Origin: a virus
Taxonomy: Duplodnaviria > Heunggongvirae > Uroviricota > Caudoviricetes
Strand: one strand, 5' to 3'
Virus record (IMG/VR): IMGVR_UViG_2526164649_000019
Length of the DNA: 6,745 nt
Part shown: positions 563 to 6,745 of the stretch, in pieces
Layout: every line of letters starts with the position of its first letter
Position numbering within the stretch: the stretch's first letter is position 1
Notes under the pieces: generated by a model
Database searches by the model: none
What the model was told of the DNA's origin: nothing
What the model saw: the letters and a program-made list of their open reading frames with translations, nothing else
Translations under genes and position numbers: made by a program

Positions 563-837
563 CCTCACAACGCCATCCTGACAAGCGTTTTATCTTCAAC
601 GGGAATGAGATATGGAAACGTGGAGAATCAACCACAGAGTATACCCGCGCACACCAGCGAACAATCAGACGACTGCGCAGACTCATCGCCAGGAAACAGT
701 ATACAGAAAAATGGTTCAGAAAATATGACACATGGAGCGCCGGATATTACGAACTGATGGCAACAAAACCATTCTGACGTAAACGAAATTAACCATGACG
801 CAATTAAATAAGGCAAGCCGAATACATCAGGAGGACC

Positions 838-1026
838 ATGAACATTTATTTCAGAATAGTTATATCACTGGCAATTATCGCATGTATTTACGGATTAATC
901 GTTCCGGCCCTCATATCAATGAAGGATACGGTAGCAGTGATTTCTGGCTTTGCTCTGGCGTGTCTGACCCCGCCCTGCATTTATGCCATTTATAAGGGTC
1001 TTTCTTTTTCTAAGGATAAAAGATGA
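838..1026 (+). CDS. Small (62 aa) membrane protein with two predicted transmembrane helices; translationally coupled to the downstream SPFH gene
   Basis: Shine-Dalgarno AGGAGG at 829-834, ATG at 838. Two hydrophobic segments (IVISLAIIACIYGLIVPALI and VAVISGFALACLTPPCIYAIY) and a basic C-terminal tail (KGLSFSKDKR), consistent with both termini in the cytoplasm. Its stop TGA (1024-1026) overlaps the next ATG (1023-1025). Confidence 0.7.
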   Translation: MNIYFRIVISLAIIACIYGLIVPALISMKDTVAVISGFALACLTPPCIYAIYKGLSFSKDKR

Positions 1027-1850
1027 AAAAAGTTATTCCTGCTTTAGCCCTTGTTCTGCTGACCACCGGACTTGTCGGTTGCGATCGCGTTGAGCCTGGT
1101 AATGTTGGCATCAAGGTAAACAAACTGGGCGACGATAAAGGCGTCGGAGAAGTGGTCGGTGTTGGGCGCTACTGGACGGGATGGAACACTGAGGTTTACA
1201 TCTTCCCGACCTTCAAACAAATGAAGACCTACGATGAGCCATTCAGCTTCCAGATGAGTGACGGTACAACCATCGGCTATCACATCGGCGTGGCCTACAA
1301 AGTTGATCCATCCAAAGTTACCACAGTCTTTCAGACCTACCGCAAAGGCGTGGACGACATTACCGACACCGACCTGCGCCAGAAGATAGCCGACGCACTC
1401 AACCGACTGGCCAGCAAAATGACCACCGACAAATTTATCGACGGCGGCAAGTCTGAGCTGCTGGATGCAGCTCTTAAAGACATTCAGGAAGAAATGACGC
1501 CCATCGGTATTCAGGTAATGAGCCTCTCATATGTGGGTAAGCCGGAGTACCCGCCTACTGTTATCGACAGCATTAATGCCAAAGTCACGGCGAACCAGAA
1601 AACCCTGCAACGCGAGCAGGAAGTAAAACAGCGCGAAGCGGAAGCCAACATGTTGCGCGCGGAAGCTGCCGGACAGGCAGATGCGATTCGCACAAAAGCC
1701 CAGGCCGAAGCCGATGCTATTCGTTTACGCGGTGAAGCTCTGCGCCAGAACCCAAACGTTATGGAGCTGGAAGCCATCAACAAGTGGAACGGTACACTGC
1801 CGCAATACATGACCAGCGGTGCCAACACACCATTTATTCAGGTTAAGTAA
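1023..1850 (+). CDS. SPFH/band-7 (stomatin/prohibitin/HflKC-like) lipoprotein, predicted inner-membrane anchored with a periplasmic SPFH domain and a C-terminal Ala/Glu-rich coiled coil
   Basis: Signal peptide MKKVIPALALVLLTTGLVGC with lipobox L-V-G-C, followed by Asp at +2 (CD), the classical Lol-avoidance inner-membrane retention signal. SPFH-like core (GRYWTGWNTEVYIFPTFKQ ... IGIQVMSLSYVGKPEYPPTVIDSINAKV) and a heptad-like tail (QREQEVKQREAEANMLRAEAAGQADAIRTKAQAEADAIRLRGEALRQ). RBS AGGA at about 1011-1014. Confidence 0.88.
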   Translation: MKKVIPALALVLLTTGLVGCDRVEPGNVGIKVNKLGDDKGVGEVVGVGRYWTGWNTEVYIFPTFKQMKTYDEPFSFQMSDGTTIGYHIGVAYKVDPSKVTTVFQTYRKGVDDITDTDLRQKIADALNRLASKMTTDKFIDGGKSELLDAALKDIQEEMTPIGIQVMSLSYVGKPEYPPTVIDSINAKVTANQKTLQREQEVKQREAEANMLRAEAAGQADAIRTKAQAEADAIRLRGEALRQNPNVMELEAINKWNGTLPQYMTSGANTPFIQVK

Positions 1851-1893: not shown

Positions 1894-2643
1894 ATGAATA
1901 CTGTAACCATCAACAACAAACAGTTTCCGGTAATCGAATATCGCGGTCAGCGTGTTGTGACGCTGGCGATGATTGATGAAGTCCACCAGCGACCGGAAGG
2001 AACCGCGCGTGCAGCATTCAACCGAAACCGTGAGCATTTCATCAGCGGTGTGGATTATGCCGAATTAGGTGCGGACGTAATACGTACGGACCTCCCGGAA
2101 GGAACATTCTCTAAATTTGCACCATCGGGGATTGTACTTTTTGAATCAGGTTACCTGATGTTGACGAAGCCATTCAATGACGCCCTTGCCTGGCAGGTTC
2201 AGCGCGAACTGGTTAACAGCTACTTCCGCACTCGCACACCGCTAACGGAAATCGAGATGATCGCTGCGATAGCCGCCGACGCTGTTCGTCAACAGAAGCG
2301 CCTGAATCATGTGGAAGAACAGCTCGAAACAGTCACAGAAGCGGTGGAAACCATCAAACGCGGAAATATGCGCGCCGGATATGTCGGTTACCGCCAGGTG
2401 GTAGCCAAAAGTGGAATGAGTGACGCCAAGTGTCGGAATCTGGTGAACGCATATCAAATTCCTACAGACACCCACGAATTCATGACTCCGGACGGTCTGT
2501 TGTCTCGCAGGGCTATCGTCGAGCTTGAGCCATTTATGGCGGCGTTCCACCAAATGATGTCAGAGGCTGAACCACACGGCACACGCTGGTATCACCCGAA
2601 GATGGGGCTTTTCCAGGTGATCGGATGGGAGGATAAAGCATGA
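1894..2643 (+). CDS. ORF6N / KilA-N-like DNA-binding domain protein (antirepressor-like phage regulator), 249 aa
   Basis: RBS GGAG at 1884-1887, ATG at 1894 (MNTVTINNKQFPVIEYRGQRVVTLAMIDEV...). N-terminal region carries the pattern typical of ORF6N/KilA-N domains (RNREHFISGVDYAEL ... VLFESGYLMLTKPFND). The C-terminal half is helical and of unknown function. The ORF track's longer version (from 1819) overlaps the SPFH gene and lacks an RBS. Confidence 0.8.
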   Translation: MNTVTINNKQFPVIEYRGQRVVTLAMIDEVHQRPEGTARAAFNRNREHFISGVDYAELGADVIRTDLPEGTFSKFAPSGIVLFESGYLMLTKPFNDALAWQVQRELVNSYFRTRTPLTEIEMIAAIAADAVRQQKRLNHVEEQLETVTEAVETIKRGNMRAGYVGYRQVVAKSGMSDAKCRNLVNAYQIPTDTHEFMTPDGLLSRRAIVELEPFMAAFHQMMSEAEPHGTRWYHPKMGLFQVIGWEDKA

Positions 2644-3209
2644 TCATCCAGTCAAAACTTATTCGCGCCGCTCTGGTGTGCGCTGCTAAAAACGACGTTC
2701 GTTATTACCTGAACGGTCTTCACATCACGCCGAAACATATTGAGGCAACCAATGGTTCCGTGGCACTGCGCATGGCTCACGGCATCCGGACGAAGAAAAA
2801 CATCATTGTCCAGTTCGAAGGGGGCGTCCCGGCCAAAGCCGAAACGACAGAGCTGATTTTTAGTAAAGAGCCGATCGCTGTTCATCGCGACCAGTTTCAG
2901 CGACGACTGTCCATTACCGGCATTAAACTGGTGGACGGTTGTTTTCCGGATTTGGATCGCATCATTCCGAAAAAGTTTGACCGCTGTACTCACCCGGTGC
3001 TCCAGGCGGGTTACCTGAGTTATCCAGAGAAGATGTTTGGTCGTGAGCGTAAATTTATTCCCGTCCAGTTACGTCCCTCCGGTGACGGGCAAGCGGTCAG
3101 AATTCAGTTTGATTCCATCATCAACTCAATGTATGGCAATCCTGAATTTGTTGTGATGCCTTGTCGTGATCATGGCGATTTCAACGTGGCTCAGGAGCAT
3201 CCGGAATGA
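2640..3209 (+). CDS. Truncated beta-sliding-clamp (DnaN-like) protein, 189 aa: clamp domain II-like region plus a shortened domain III-like region
   Basis: RBS GGGAGG at 2627-2632; the ATG at 2640 overlaps the upstream stop (ATGA). Motifs colinear with E. coli DnaN as I recall it: NDVRYYLNG, ATNGSVALRM (cf. ATDGHRLAV), IKLVDGCFPDLDRIIPKK (cf. SKLVDGRFPDYRRVLPK) and EFVVMPCRD (cf. the C-terminal AYVVMPMRL). The CDS call is firm; the homology call is less so (about 0.6). Confidence 0.8.
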   Translation: MIIQSKLIRAALVCAAKNDVRYYLNGLHITPKHIEATNGSVALRMAHGIRTKKNIIVQFEGGVPAKAETTELIFSKEPIAVHRDQFQRRLSITGIKLVDGCFPDLDRIIPKKFDRCTHPVLQAGYLSYPEKMFGRERKFIPVQLRPSGDGQAVRIQFDSIINSMYGNPEFVVMPCRDHGDFNVAQEHPE

Positions 3210-3244
3210 AAATCGAATACCAGGACGCCGCAGGAGGTGAATCA

Positions 3245-3328
3245 ATGAGCTGGCCTGATGCAATCGTAACTCTGGGGATGGTATTCGCAGTAGCGTTTGT
3301 TGTGTACTCGATTTGTCGATGGGGATAA
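3245..3328 (+). CDS. Candidate 27-aa hydrophobic single-helix membrane peptide (MSWPDAIVTLGMVFAVAFVVYSICRWG)
   Basis: Near-consensus Shine-Dalgarno AGGAGGT at 3232-3238 with a 6-7 nt spacer to the ATG at 3245. It fills the gap between the flanking genes exactly (upstream stop 3209, downstream start 3333). Too short for the ORF track. Confidence 0.45.
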   Translation: MSWPDAIVTLGMVFAVAFVVYSICRWG

Positions 3329-3733: not shown

Positions 3734-3896
3734 ATGGGCAATGTGATTCAACTGGCTCCCAATGAATGGGTTTGTGAAAGCGTTCTAATCGCAATTACCG
3801 GGCTCAAACCAGGCACAATTCTTCGGGCCCGGAAAGAATGCTGGATGGTTGGAAGAGAGTATATTCACGTATCACCAGACGGTAATCCAAAGCCTT
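3734..3896 (+). pseudogene. int: 5' segment of the tyrosine integrase gene (N-terminal excisionase/AlpA-like HTH DNA-binding domain), cut off from the rest of the gene by an IS911-like insertion; alternatively a separate xis
   Basis: RBS GAGGT at 3725-3729, ATG at 3734. Product MGNVIQLAPNEWVCESVLIAITGLKPGTILRARKECWMVGREYIHVSPDGNPKP resembles Xis/AlpA winged-helix proteins (cf. lambda Xis ...RRWVRECRIF...GREYLF). From 3898 the frame runs into the IS inverted repeat. Removing the IS and one copy of CTT joins this frame in-frame to the integrase body at 5149. Confidence 0.55.
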
Positions 3897-3897
3897 C

Positions 3898-5104
<1,207 letters not shown>

Positions 5105-5109
5105 ATCAC

Positions 5110-5145
5110 CTCTGTTCAGGTGGCCAAATTCAGTGTGCCACTTCA
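5110..5145. repeat. IS911-like left inverted repeat (IRL)
   Basis: Reverse complement reads TGAAGTGGCACACTGAATTTGGCCACCTGAACAGAG; 24 of 36 positions match the right inverted repeat. Confidence 0.8.
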
Positions 5146-5148
5146 CTT

Positions 5149-6239
5149 TTGGGGTAAGTAAAAAAGAAATTACGGTGAAGGAACTTGAAGAAAAGTGGCT
5201 GGATCTGAAACGAATGGAAATCTCTGCAAATGCATTCAATCGCTATGAATCCGTTGCAAGAACGATGGTTCCGAAAATTGGAGGCGGCAGACTGGTGTCA
5301 TCGGTAACCAAAGAGGAATTGCTGTATATCAGGAAAGATTTGCTGACCGGGTATCAGAATTCAACGAAAAACAAAGCAGCAGCAAAAGGACGGAGCGTCG
5401 TTACTGTAAATTATTACATGACGACAATCGCTGGAATGTTTCAGTTTGCTGCAGATCACGGTTACTTAGAAGCAAATCCCTTCCAGGGAATTAAGCCTCT
5501 TAAAAGAGCCAGGGCAGAGCCAGATCCGCTAACTCGTGACGAATTTATTCGCCTGATAGATGCTTGCCGACATCAGCAGACGAAAAACCTGTGGTCATTG
5601 GCTGTGTACACAGGAATGCGTCACGGTGAACTGGTCTCCCTGGCCTGGGAAGATATCGATCTGAAAGCAGGAACTATTACTATCAGGCGCAATTATACGA
5701 AACTCGGTGAGTTCACTCTACCTAAAACTGAAGCAAGTACAAACAGGGTTGTGCATCTTATCCAGCCCGCTATCAGTGTCCTGAAAAATCAGGCTGAAAT
5801 GACAAGACTGGGTAAGCAGCACCACATCAAGGTTCAACTACGTGAATATGGACGTTCAGTGAATCATGAATGTACTTTCGTATTTAACCCCCAGGTGGTT
5901 AGAAAAAGCAAACAGGTAGGTTTTATCTACAAGGTAGATTCCATTGGCGACTCATGGGAAACAGCCATTAAGCGTGCGGGCATCAGGCACCGGAAAGCAT
6001 ACCAGTCACGACACACTTATGCGTGCTGGTCATTATCTGCCGGAGCAAACCCAAGCTTCATTGCCAGCCAGATGGGCCATGCAAGTGCCCAGATGGTGTT
6101 CAATGTATACGGAGCATGGATGACTGACAGTAATGCAGAACAGATCGCAATGCTGAATCAGAAGCTGGCAGATTATGTCTCAATGATGTCCCATGGTCAC
6201 CAAAGTGACACAAGAGACTTATTAAAATCAGTGGGTTAG
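5149..6239 (+). pseudogene. int: 3' segment of a phage tyrosine integrase (core-binding plus catalytic domain), lacking its own start because of the IS911-like insertion
   Basis: Tyrosine-recombinase motifs: Arg in TGMRHGEL (codon 5619-5621), box II region SRHTYACW...GH (6009-6020), and candidate nucleophile Tyr in FNVYGAWM (codon 6108-6110). Stop TAG at 6237-6239. There is no in-frame start between the IS end and the conserved region; the ORF-track start at 5073 lies inside the IS. Confidence 0.85.
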
Positions 6240-6265
6240 CCTTCAATACCCGTCATGTTAACTGC
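6240..6265. other. Candidate prophage/host junction (attL core region)
   Basis: Lies between the integrase stop (6239) and the point where yecE-like coding similarity begins (about 6251-6266). The exact core cannot be fixed without the other prophage end or an uninterrupted yecE allele. Confidence 0.3.
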
Positions 6266-6745
6266 GTGGAGGGCAACACCACGCTTTACGCCCTGCCGAA
6301 ACCCGAGGTTGTCCTGCGCTGGCGTGAACAGACCACAGATGACTTCCGCTTCTGTTTTAAGTTTCCGGCGACCATTTCGCATCAGGCAGCATTACGACAT
6401 TGCGATGATTTAGTGACTGAATTTTTGACCCGCATGTCACCGTTGGCTCCGCGCATTGGGCAATACTGGCTGCAACTGCCTGCCACATTCGGCCCACGGG
6501 AGCTGCCTGCGCTTTGGCATTTTCTCGATTCTCTCCCTGGCGAATTTAATTATGGTGTGGAAGTCCGCCATCCACAGTTTTTCGCCAAAGGGGAAGAGGA
6601 ACAAACGCTTAATCGCGGTTTACATCAGCGCGGCGTTAATCGGGTGATTTTAGACAGCCGCCCGGTTCATGCATCACGTCCACACAGTGAAGCTATTCGC
6701 GACGCTCAACGAAAAAACCTAAAGTTCCGGTACATGCTGTACTGA
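6251..6745 (+). pseudogene. yecE: 3' portion of the host gene yecE (DUF72 family), interrupted near its 5' end by the prophage; possibly also prematurely terminated at 6743-6745
   Basis: Frame reads ...RHVNCVEGNTTLYALPKPEVVLRWREQTTDDFRFCFKFPATISHQAAL..., which matches my recollection of E. coli YecE from about residue 30 onward. There is no ATG or RBS for this fragment (the ORF track begins it at GTG 6266). yecE is a documented integration site for lambdoid (including Stx) phages. Confidence 0.55.

Follow-up and report, generated by a model that had tools for sequence, protein, structure and literature searches.

A widespread phage gene pair coding for a predicted lipid-anchored SPFH protein and a two-helix membrane partner, carried by a decayed phiP27-like prophage of Shigella flexneri

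The stretch of viral DNA described here (IMG/VR record IMGVR_UViG_2526164649_000019, Caudoviricetes; 6,745 nucleotides (nt), referred to as the window throughout) contains two overlapping genes on its plus strand, the first coding for a protein of 62 amino acids (aa) with two predicted membrane helices and the second for a 275-aa protein of the SPFH (Band 7) superfamily that carries a lipoprotein signal peptide. Both open reading frames (ORFs) and the ATGA overlap between them at 1023–1026 are read directly from the sequence, as a preliminary description of the locus had reported. The 6.7 kb of the window correspond to the left arm of a lambdoid prophage of the phiP27 type with its integration site at yecE, and the pair was rightly called phage-borne, since excisionase (xis) and integrase (int) genes adjoin yecE in this arm. 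The locus is an ordinary copy of a widespread, already annotated phage gene pair. As a class, the pair constitutes an undescribed variant of the SPFH-plus-partner theme, predicted to combine a periplasmic, lipid-anchored scaffold with a membrane hairpin that replaces NfeD. The features of the pair are as follows:

829–834, plus strand: Shine–Dalgarno-like AGGAGG preceding the small ORF, with a short spacing of 3 nt to the ATG
838–1026, plus strand: small ORF for the SPFH partner, 62 aa, two helices, predicted inner-membrane hairpin of the phrog_1130 family
904–930, plus strand: best-conserved part of the partner (P23-A-L-I-S-M-K-D-T31), located at the inter-helix turn and at what is predicted to be the periplasmic end of the first transmembrane (TM) helix
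1011–1016, plus strand: Shine–Dalgarno-like TAAGGA of the SPFH gene, within the end of the partner ORF and 6 nt ahead of the ATG at 1023
1023–1026, plus strand: ATGA start/stop overlap, with the SPFH ATG (1023–1025) over the TGA of the small ORF (1024–1026), indicating translational coupling
1023–1850, plus strand: SPFH/Band 7 prolipoprotein gene, 275 aa, phrog_200, prohibitin/HflK-like
1023–1082, plus strand: lipoprotein signal peptide, with an MKK n-region, a hydrophobic core, and the lipobox LVGC
1083–1085, plus strand: Asp at position +2 of the mature lipoprotein (D21), followed by Arg at +3
1086–1646, plus strand: SPFH domain (Pfam residues 22–208), with an AlphaFold predicted local distance difference test (pLDDT) score mostly >85
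1554–1748, plus strand: continuous 65-residue helix in the AlphaFold model (residues 178–242), the coiled-coil wall element of SPFH cages
1782–1802, plus strand: conserved C-terminal K-W-N-G-x-L-P motif, in which W255, G257, and P260 do not vary within the family

The assignment of the 275-aa protein to the SPFH/Band 7 proteins, made initially from the letters alone, was borne out by a profile search, in which residues 22–208 matched Pfam Band_7 (PF01145) with E=6.1e-31 and 108.3 bits against a cut-off of 23.6. The AlphaFold model of the monomer (pLDDT 84.3) comprises SPFH1/2, the helix 178–242, and a short C-terminal helix. In Foldseek searches this model aligned end to end with solved SPFH cage subunits, HflC/HflK (7vhq) coming first with E=3.5e-14, followed by prohibitin (8rrh), erlin, stomatin, flotillin, and QmcA. 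By sequence, the best match in the PDB is HflK, with E=2e-4 only. Thus, the likeness to HflK/HflC that had been proposed stands insofar as these proteins are the closest solved relatives by sequence and by fold, but it does not extend to the equivalog models, whose cut-offs were missed: TIGR01932 (hflC) gave 26 bits against 134.4, TIGR01933 (hflK) 23.5 against 159.4, and PRK10930 20.4 against 660, and NCBIfam yielded only sub-threshold matches to HflK, HflC, and FloT. Metagenomic homologues carry the NCBI name ‘prohibitin family protein’. The protein is clearly a member of the SPFH superfamily of the HflK/prohibitin kind, and neither an HflK/C orthologue nor part of an SPFH–NfeD pair. In PADLOC-DB v2, no family was matched at E up to 0.1 by the SPFH protein, its partner, or the two proteins encoded downstream.

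The SPFH protein also matches phrog_200, labelled ‘lipoprotein’, with E=1e-114. Its N-terminus reads MKKVIPALALVLLTTG-LVGC-DR, which places the lipobox L17-V18-G19-C20 at 1071–1082 and Cys20 at 1080–1082. The signal peptide was read directly from the sequence, and a basic N-terminus, a hydrophobic core, and a lipobox of the form [LVI][ASTVI][GAS]C are all present. The lipobox Cys is invariant in a diverse alignment of 35 sequences, at least 90% conserved among 134 sequences, and located 2–5 residues ahead of the first SPFH strand across the subfamily. The conservation of this residue and the reading of the sequence agree with the preliminary description, which had pointed out the LVGC lipobox with Asp at +2 and predicted an SPFH domain in the periplasm. 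In E. coli, Asp at +2 acts as the Lol-avoidance signal that retains lipoproteins in the inner membrane. The sequence C-D-R occurs in 90 of the 120 closest cluster representatives and is typical of the enterobacterial clade. In one sample of the wider family the +2 residue was Thr (27 sequences), Ser (23), Asp (16), Gly (11), or Glu (6), and in another it was Ser in 89 of 120. Asp at +2 is a trait of the enterobacterial clade only and does not characterise the family.

The 62-aa protein matches phrog_1130, labelled ‘membrane protein’, with E=6.6e-24. The small ORF is genuinely a gene. Purifying selection is confined to its own frame, in which the ratio of nonsynonymous to synonymous substitution rates (dN/dS) is 0.28 against phiP27 and 0.23 against the Hendrixvirinae phage Fraca, compared with 0.84–1.70 in the other two frames. 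An ORF at 795–995 that overlaps the small gene was rejected as coding, as dN/dS is about 1 or higher outside the frame of 838. AlphaFold, with a modest pLDDT of 67, models two helices (residues 2–26 and 31–59) separated by a turn of 4 residues, and the positive-inside rule predicts that both termini are cytoplasmic and that only the turn S27-M-K-D30 is periplasmic. Residues P23 and L25–T31 are invariant in 20 close homologues, with A24 variable, and the motif P-x-[LM]-[ILV]-S-[AS]-x-[DS]-[TS] is retained in distant and in fused partner homologues. No Pfam family and no NfeD domain were matched by the 62-aa protein, nor was there any NfeD match among the ten window proteins scanned, and a protein of only 62 aa is too short for an OB-fold. 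Therefore, the partner is not an NfeD protein, in agreement with the preliminary description. It had moreover been called unusual as a minimal partner, which is right as far as the difference from NfeD goes but not as regards rarity, since members of the conserved phrog_1130 family are widespread and often fused to SPFH. In size and topology the 62-aa protein resembles a class II holin, but its gene sits in the early left operon and not in a lysis cassette. The identical 4-nt overlap with the SPFH gene is found in phiP27, P88, Fraca, KpCHEMY26, OLIVR6, Pseudomonas phage 5400, and a Cohaesibacter prophage.

By tblastn, SPFH homologues are present in 592 phage records, with at least 80% of the length covered in 373. 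Many strictly virulent groups are represented, and so are haloarchaeal viruses. Among 1.84 billion cluster representatives, a search returned 3,067 SPFH clusters at E<1e-3, of which 231 reached E<1e-30. A loci search with the single SPFH protein of the window retrieved only loci of 96–100% identity, and three distant queries retrieved none. The pair occurs in the same order, and in most cases with the 4-nt overlap, in phiP27 and in Stx2a/Stx2d phages, some of them at yecE, and it is present in 215 complete E. coli genomes, in Fraca and the P2-like phage P88, and in P1-like phage-plasmids, where it lies between dmt and ban. Outside these groups, it is also found in Pseudomonas phage 5400, Stenotrophomonas phage Pokken, Agrobacterium phage OLIVR6, and the Cohaesibacter prophage. 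Virulent phages carrying either the pair or SPFH alone comprise N4-like, rV5-like, FelixO1-like, Bruynoghevirus, and phiCbK-like phages. The virulent N4-like Klebsiella phage KpCHEMY26 has the pair, and its annotation describes the upstream gene as ‘2 TMDs N in C in’; in rV5-like phages, partner and SPFH are separated by one gene. The genes plp/upl of canonical P1 were considered as the same pair and rejected, as plp codes for 125 aa and lies on the opposite strand, and canonical P1 is devoid of the SPFH pair.

A hidden Markov model (HMM) built from 25 partner sequences gave 117 matches among 17,223 six-frame ORFs (988 kb of loci), all of them on the strand of the SPFH gene and nearly all directly upstream of it; by our tally of these matches, the partner is present in 37 of 46 non-redundant loci. 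In 23 proteins of more than 200 aa, the partner is fused N-terminally to the signal peptide, lipobox, and SPFH domain through linkers of varying length, and about 20 of these fusions, 320–390 aa long, are found among the best 150 SPFH homologues (representatives at 50% identity). From its N-terminus, the fused form runs through the partner with its motif, a linker that varies, a hydrophobic segment resembling a signal peptide, the lipobox Cys, and finally the SPFH domain, an order that agrees with the predicted topology of an N-in/C-in partner followed by a signal peptide leading from inside to outside. Rosetta-stone fusions of this type, with differing linkers and in many separate clusters, make a functional link between partner and SPFH very likely. 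In some distant relatives, the partner gene stands immediately 3’ of SPFH instead of 5’ (locus L119, 2157–2288). One protein with the partner at the SPFH C-terminus (P0162, residues 283–331) is topologically awkward and was not counted as a true fusion; it is probably a read-through of the SPFH-then-partner gene order seen in L119. Another fusion (P0383, at 6001–7044 of locus L128) is encoded in a metagenome-assembled bacterial genome amid non-phage genes, namely those for an LVIVD-repeat protein, a sigma-54 regulator, and a histidine kinase, so the module is not strictly confined to phages.

Mature SPFH proteins of the lambdoid, P2-like, and P1-like phages share 96–97% identity, and identity is still 78% for that of an N4-like phage. 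The DNA similarity of the window to P88 and to the P1-like elements starts at about 1071–1076, a mosaic breakpoint that falls in the lipobox codons (1071–1082). Partner and signal peptide thus appear to be exchanged as a unit, separately from mature SPFH, which is very highly conserved and has spread horizontally between unrelated phages.

The position of the pair within phage genomes is informative about its expression. In a related intact E. coli prophage, it lies in sense orientation in the leftward early operon, past the CI-like repressor gene and towards xis/int, and phiP27 and Fraca have the same arrangement. In P88, the pair is located in the cox-side early operon, 5’ of the replication gene, and in the P1-like plasmids a perfect C1 operator lies at the end of dmt, 1.5 kb upstream of the pair; in the P1 annotation, this operator is Oban and controls the ban operon. 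The pair belongs to an early lytic operon in all temperate contexts examined. In virulent N4-like, rV5-like, and FelixO1-like phages, it is placed among DNA-metabolism genes, and in the Cohaesibacter prophage it follows the DNA polymerase A gene. Among the Gram-negative phage loci examined, it was never found in a lysis cassette, and in the related intact prophage holin and lysozyme are more than 11 kb away from it. A scan of the window detected no sigma-70-like promoter and no plus-strand terminator in 500–2700. Taken together, this context suggests early or middle lytic expression and repression in lysogens. Just past the SPFH stop, at 1860–1880, lies a GC-rich inverted repeat (GCCCGG-N9-CCGGGC) that is devoid of a T-run and was not called a terminator by the scan.

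Several known systems share part of this architecture. HflK/HflC, the FtsH modulators of E. coli (PDB 7vhp, 7vhq, 7wi3, and 9cz2), have SPFH1/2, the long helix, the C-terminal cap region, and, by prediction, the periplasmic bulk on the inner membrane in common with the phage protein, at about 16–18% identity in structural alignments, but they form a pair of paralogous SPFH proteins with N-terminal TM anchors, whereas the phages have one SPFH gene with a lipobox and a hairpin gene. Prohibitins, whose PHB1/2 cage subunits are among the top fold matches, face the intermembrane space, which is equivalent to the periplasm where phage SPFH is predicted to reside, and partner an FtsH-type protease. 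The classification of prokaryotic SPFH proteins by Hinderhofer et al. (2009), in which p-prohibitins constitute SPFH4, mentions the words ‘lipoprotein’ and ‘phage’ zero times and describes for its prohibitins no lipoprotein form, phage association, or hairpin partner, unlike what is found for phage SPFH. The SPFH–NfeD operons (QmcA–YbbJ, PDB 8z5g; YqiK–YqiJ; PH1511–PH1510) resemble the phage pair in being two-gene operons with a small membrane partner and fused forms, and QmcA is a fold match. However, their partner contains the NfeD OB-fold and their SPFH protein faces the cytoplasm, whereas in the phage pair there is no OB-fold, SPFH is predicted to be periplasmic, and the partner gene lies upstream and its product exposes a turn of 4–5 residues. 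Finally, MbpS/MbpV of Kayvirus also place a phage SPFH protein beside a small membrane protein, and MbpS-type genes are weak tblastn matches of the SPFH protein of the window (26% identity, E=6e-6); these genes differ in their Gram-positive host and their position in the lysis region.

The reading favoured here, with slightly less than even confidence, is that the pair makes an early scaffold that is lipid-anchored on the periplasmic face of the inner membrane and acts, together with its hairpin partner, on a conserved host target. The SPFH protein would be exported by Sec and lipidated at Cys20, and in enterobacteria Asp at +2 would hold it in the inner membrane. On the periplasmic face of this membrane, the 65-residue helix would drive assembly into rings or cages comparable to those of HflK/C and prohibitins. 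The 62-aa hairpin would be an integral-membrane subunit or a client of this assembly, with both ends in the cytoplasm, and might contact SPFH via the conserved periplasmic turn ‘P-x-L-I-S-x-K-D-T’. The gene pair and its conservation, the fusions, the domain architecture, the signal peptide with its lipobox, and the early-operon position are established by the analysis; we infer lipidation, oligomerisation, the contact between partner and SPFH, and the host target, as well as the inner-membrane location, which is suggested by the Asp +2 rule, the obligatory inner-membrane location of the partner, and the fused forms. The module would be produced early in lytic growth and would not represent a lysogenic-conversion gene. 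Since near-identical SPFH proteins are carried by phages with unrelated virions, receptors, holins, and regulators, its target may well be a conserved component of the host envelope and not a phage-specific protein; most likely, the SPFH assembly would enclose or shield a patch of inner membrane.

HflK/C and prohibitins are established partners of FtsH/m-AAA proteases. Because these best-characterised relatives both enclose FtsH-type proteases, and HflK/HflC are the closest solved relatives, FtsH-type membrane quality control would be a reasonable and indeed the leading candidate client, followed by membrane stabilisation or the exclusion of superinfecting phage DNA. Within the overall model, FtsH-linked quality control as the target is nevertheless on the doubtful side. 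Rather unlikely is a bolder formulation, according to which the protein would be a ‘viral prohibitin’ of many phage families, that is, a self-contained, lipid-anchored periplasmic SPFH cage with a new kind of adaptor, a two-helix hairpin that takes the place of NfeD and can be fused to SPFH. As a general step of host takeover early in infection by virulent and temperate phages alike, this cage would seize a machine of the host inner membrane that is conserved, most obviously FtsH.

A number of observations weigh against the proposed scaffold or parts of it. As regards the target, the scores lie so far below the HflK/HflC equivalog cut-offs that FtsH binding is not transferable by homology. As regards location, the +2 residue is mostly Ser or Thr in the wider family, so the sorting rule alone does not secure the inner membrane, and a basic residue at +3, according to work from the Tokuda laboratory, reportedly may weaken retention by Asp at +2. 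Moreover, in a sub-lineage of close enterobacterial homologues (MKKRLSVIALAAICTMGIIGYDRVEPGF...), Tyr replaces the lipobox Cys, which would preclude lipidation at that position. As regards the complex, the partner HMM detected no partner in phiEa21-4, Burkholderia RY5, and CcrSwift, and where the SPFH proteins are 96–97% identical, the partners are only 26–30% and the signal peptides 37–60% identical. This loose co-evolution of partner and SPFH would fit a weak or motif-only contact, or a partner that acts on the signal peptide or the precursor. At the Shigella locus itself, the upstream operon has been cut by an insertion sequence (IS), which makes the expression of the pair there uncertain, and in this remnant the pair may be silent. 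Concerning the literature, no functional study of a phage SPFH protein was found in relation to defence, exclusion, holin, or Shiga toxin, and papers up to 2026 state that the reason why phages carry an SPFH gene is unclear.

The observation made in the preliminary description is confirmed, and its interpretation is supported in part. The emphasis lay on the lysis–lysogeny decision: a mimic of HflK/C would tune the FtsH-dependent turnover of cII/cIII and thereby set the decision of the carrying phage. This emphasis does not hold up well, and the explanation is very unlikely, since the SPFH family is common in strictly virulent phages and is also found in P2-like and P1-like phages, whose textbook switches do not use cII/FtsH. 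In addition, the leftward delayed-early operon has the pair at its distal end, which would place its expression late relative to the cII decision, and the SPFH protein fails both the HflK and the HflC equivalog models. What speaks for such a role is that among solved structures HflK ranks first in sequence as well as in fold, that the predicted topology with its periplasmic bulk is that of HflK/C, and that the same speculation (HflC/cII) has been published for the SPFH genes of Burkholderia phage CSP3 and Pseudomonas AH14b. Abortive infection, likewise suggested, is unlikely in view of the virulent phages that carry the gene, and no PADLOC model matches it. The same null result bears on superinfection exclusion or envelope hardening, in which scaffold and hairpin would block the DNA of later phages or lysis from without, like T4 Imm/Sp. 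Such a role, which we regard as unlikely, would suit an accessory early gene for an envelope protein in virulent and temperate phages, absent as it is from canonical P1. It would also suit the gross architecture of the partner, which, with its two TM helices, short loop, and charged C-tail as well as its probable early expression, recalls T4 Imm (83 aa, two TM helices) and other small phage inner-membrane exclusion proteins. However, T4 Imm acts without an SPFH protein and has no detectable sequence similarity to the partner; tried as a homologue, it scored −2.4 bits with the partner HMM and was rejected. Furthermore, near-identical SPFH proteins in phages with very different entry machineries would demand a generic block. 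The ‘superinfection exclusion protein’ encoded directly upstream of the SPFH gene in the Vi01-like phage PhiSH19 was rejected too, being a soluble, acidic, and unrelated protein beside an SPFH too distant for the family HMM.

Two further explanations concern lysis and virulence. A scaffold that partitions the membrane could delay or organise holin triggering, or aid the export of lysis enzymes, in line with the resemblance of the partner to class II holins and with Kayvirus, whose distant homologue MbpS is encoded next to a small, holin-like membrane protein within the lysis region and, as its authors propose, has a role in Sec-dependent export of Tgl. This role in lysis timing or secretion is improbable for the pair described here, which in the Gram-negative phage loci occupies early or DNA-metabolism regions and never the lysis cassette; besides, holins are highly diverse, in contrast to the near-identity of SPFH in unrelated phages. 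It is extremely unlikely that the protein is a lipoprotein of lysogenic conversion or virulence, made by the prophage and acting on the animal host, for instance as a TLR2 agonist, given that the early operons holding the pair are repressed and a scan detected no promoter specific to it, that virulent phages of plant and environmental bacteria carry it, and that any lipoprotein can trigger TLR2. The lead for it comes from PM0222 of Pasteurella multocida, a prophage-encoded, HflK/C-like protein reported in outer-membrane vesicles, with TLR1/2 signalling and an effect on virulence, which may or may not be a homologue of this SPFH subfamily; Shigella flexneri is moreover itself a pathogen.

SPFH scaffolds, namely HflK/C, prohibitins, stomatins, and flotillins, have lately been shown to form membrane cages, and what they enclose and for what purpose is debated. 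If the proposed scaffold is real, phage SPFH would be small, homo-oligomeric, attached by lipid only, and accompanied by a partner of about 60 aa, and thus a compact tool for probing the effects of SPFH cages. It would also account for an unexplained gene in hundreds of phages, including therapeutic candidates (N4-like, rV5-like, and Kayvirus) and Stx2 phages. The conserved hairpin partner and the fusions provide a concrete hypothesis on the complex that can be tested by mutation. The Shigella locus as such is of low practical importance, as it is a decayed prophage remnant.

The identity of this remnant follows from its right-hand side, in which Pfam identifies a DUF1233 excisionase gene (xis) at 3734–3931 and the DUF72 gene yecE from 6266 to the end of the window, and the integrase region at 5146–6268 is 96.8% identical to int/attL of phiP27. 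Sequences identical to the SPFH and the small protein are catalogued under Shigella flexneri as A0A380AMA8 (‘Putative serine protease’) and A0A380AMA7 (‘Uncharacterised protein’). The prophage is decayed at this locus. Between xis and int, at 3898–5145, lies a full-length IS911 with 99.8% identity to the copy annotated in S. flexneri pCP301; relative to phiP27, it replaces the last ~73 nt of xis, a spacer of ~350 bp, and the first ~220 nt of int, and the interrupted prophage is probably locked in place at yecE. On the other side of the window, 1–566 form the terminal part of another repeated element, which has many plasmid copies of 100% identity in E. coli and Shigella and codes for the rve-domain C-terminus of an IS3-family transposase, probably IS600-like. 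This second element truncates the early operon of the prophage, so that similarity to the intact E. coli E110019 prophage begins only at 567.

Between the pair and xis, further ORFs were noted on the plus strand. Directly 3’ of the SPFH gene, 1894–2643 codes for a protein with an ORF6N domain, of the anti-repressor type (phrog_1726, E=5e-70), and a gene of this type is the downstream neighbour of SPFH also in Fraca and in E. coli prophages. The 189-aa protein encoded at 2640–3209 weakly resembles the beta clamp of DNA polymerase III (Pfam DNA_pol3_beta_2, E=0.007; TIGR00663 dnaN, E=1.2e-4; phrog_947, ‘processivity factor’), and its best PHROG is phrog_3007 (E=5.9e-65), labelled ‘RusA-like resolvase’, so the labels disagree; the homologous gene in E. 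coli E110019 is a frameshifted pseudogene. Finally, a 40-aa ORF at 3206–3328, whose start overlaps the stop of the gene before it, has one hydrophobic helix (MSWPDAIVTLGMVFAVAFVVYSICRWG); in E. coli E110019, the annotation gives it as a hypothetical protein.

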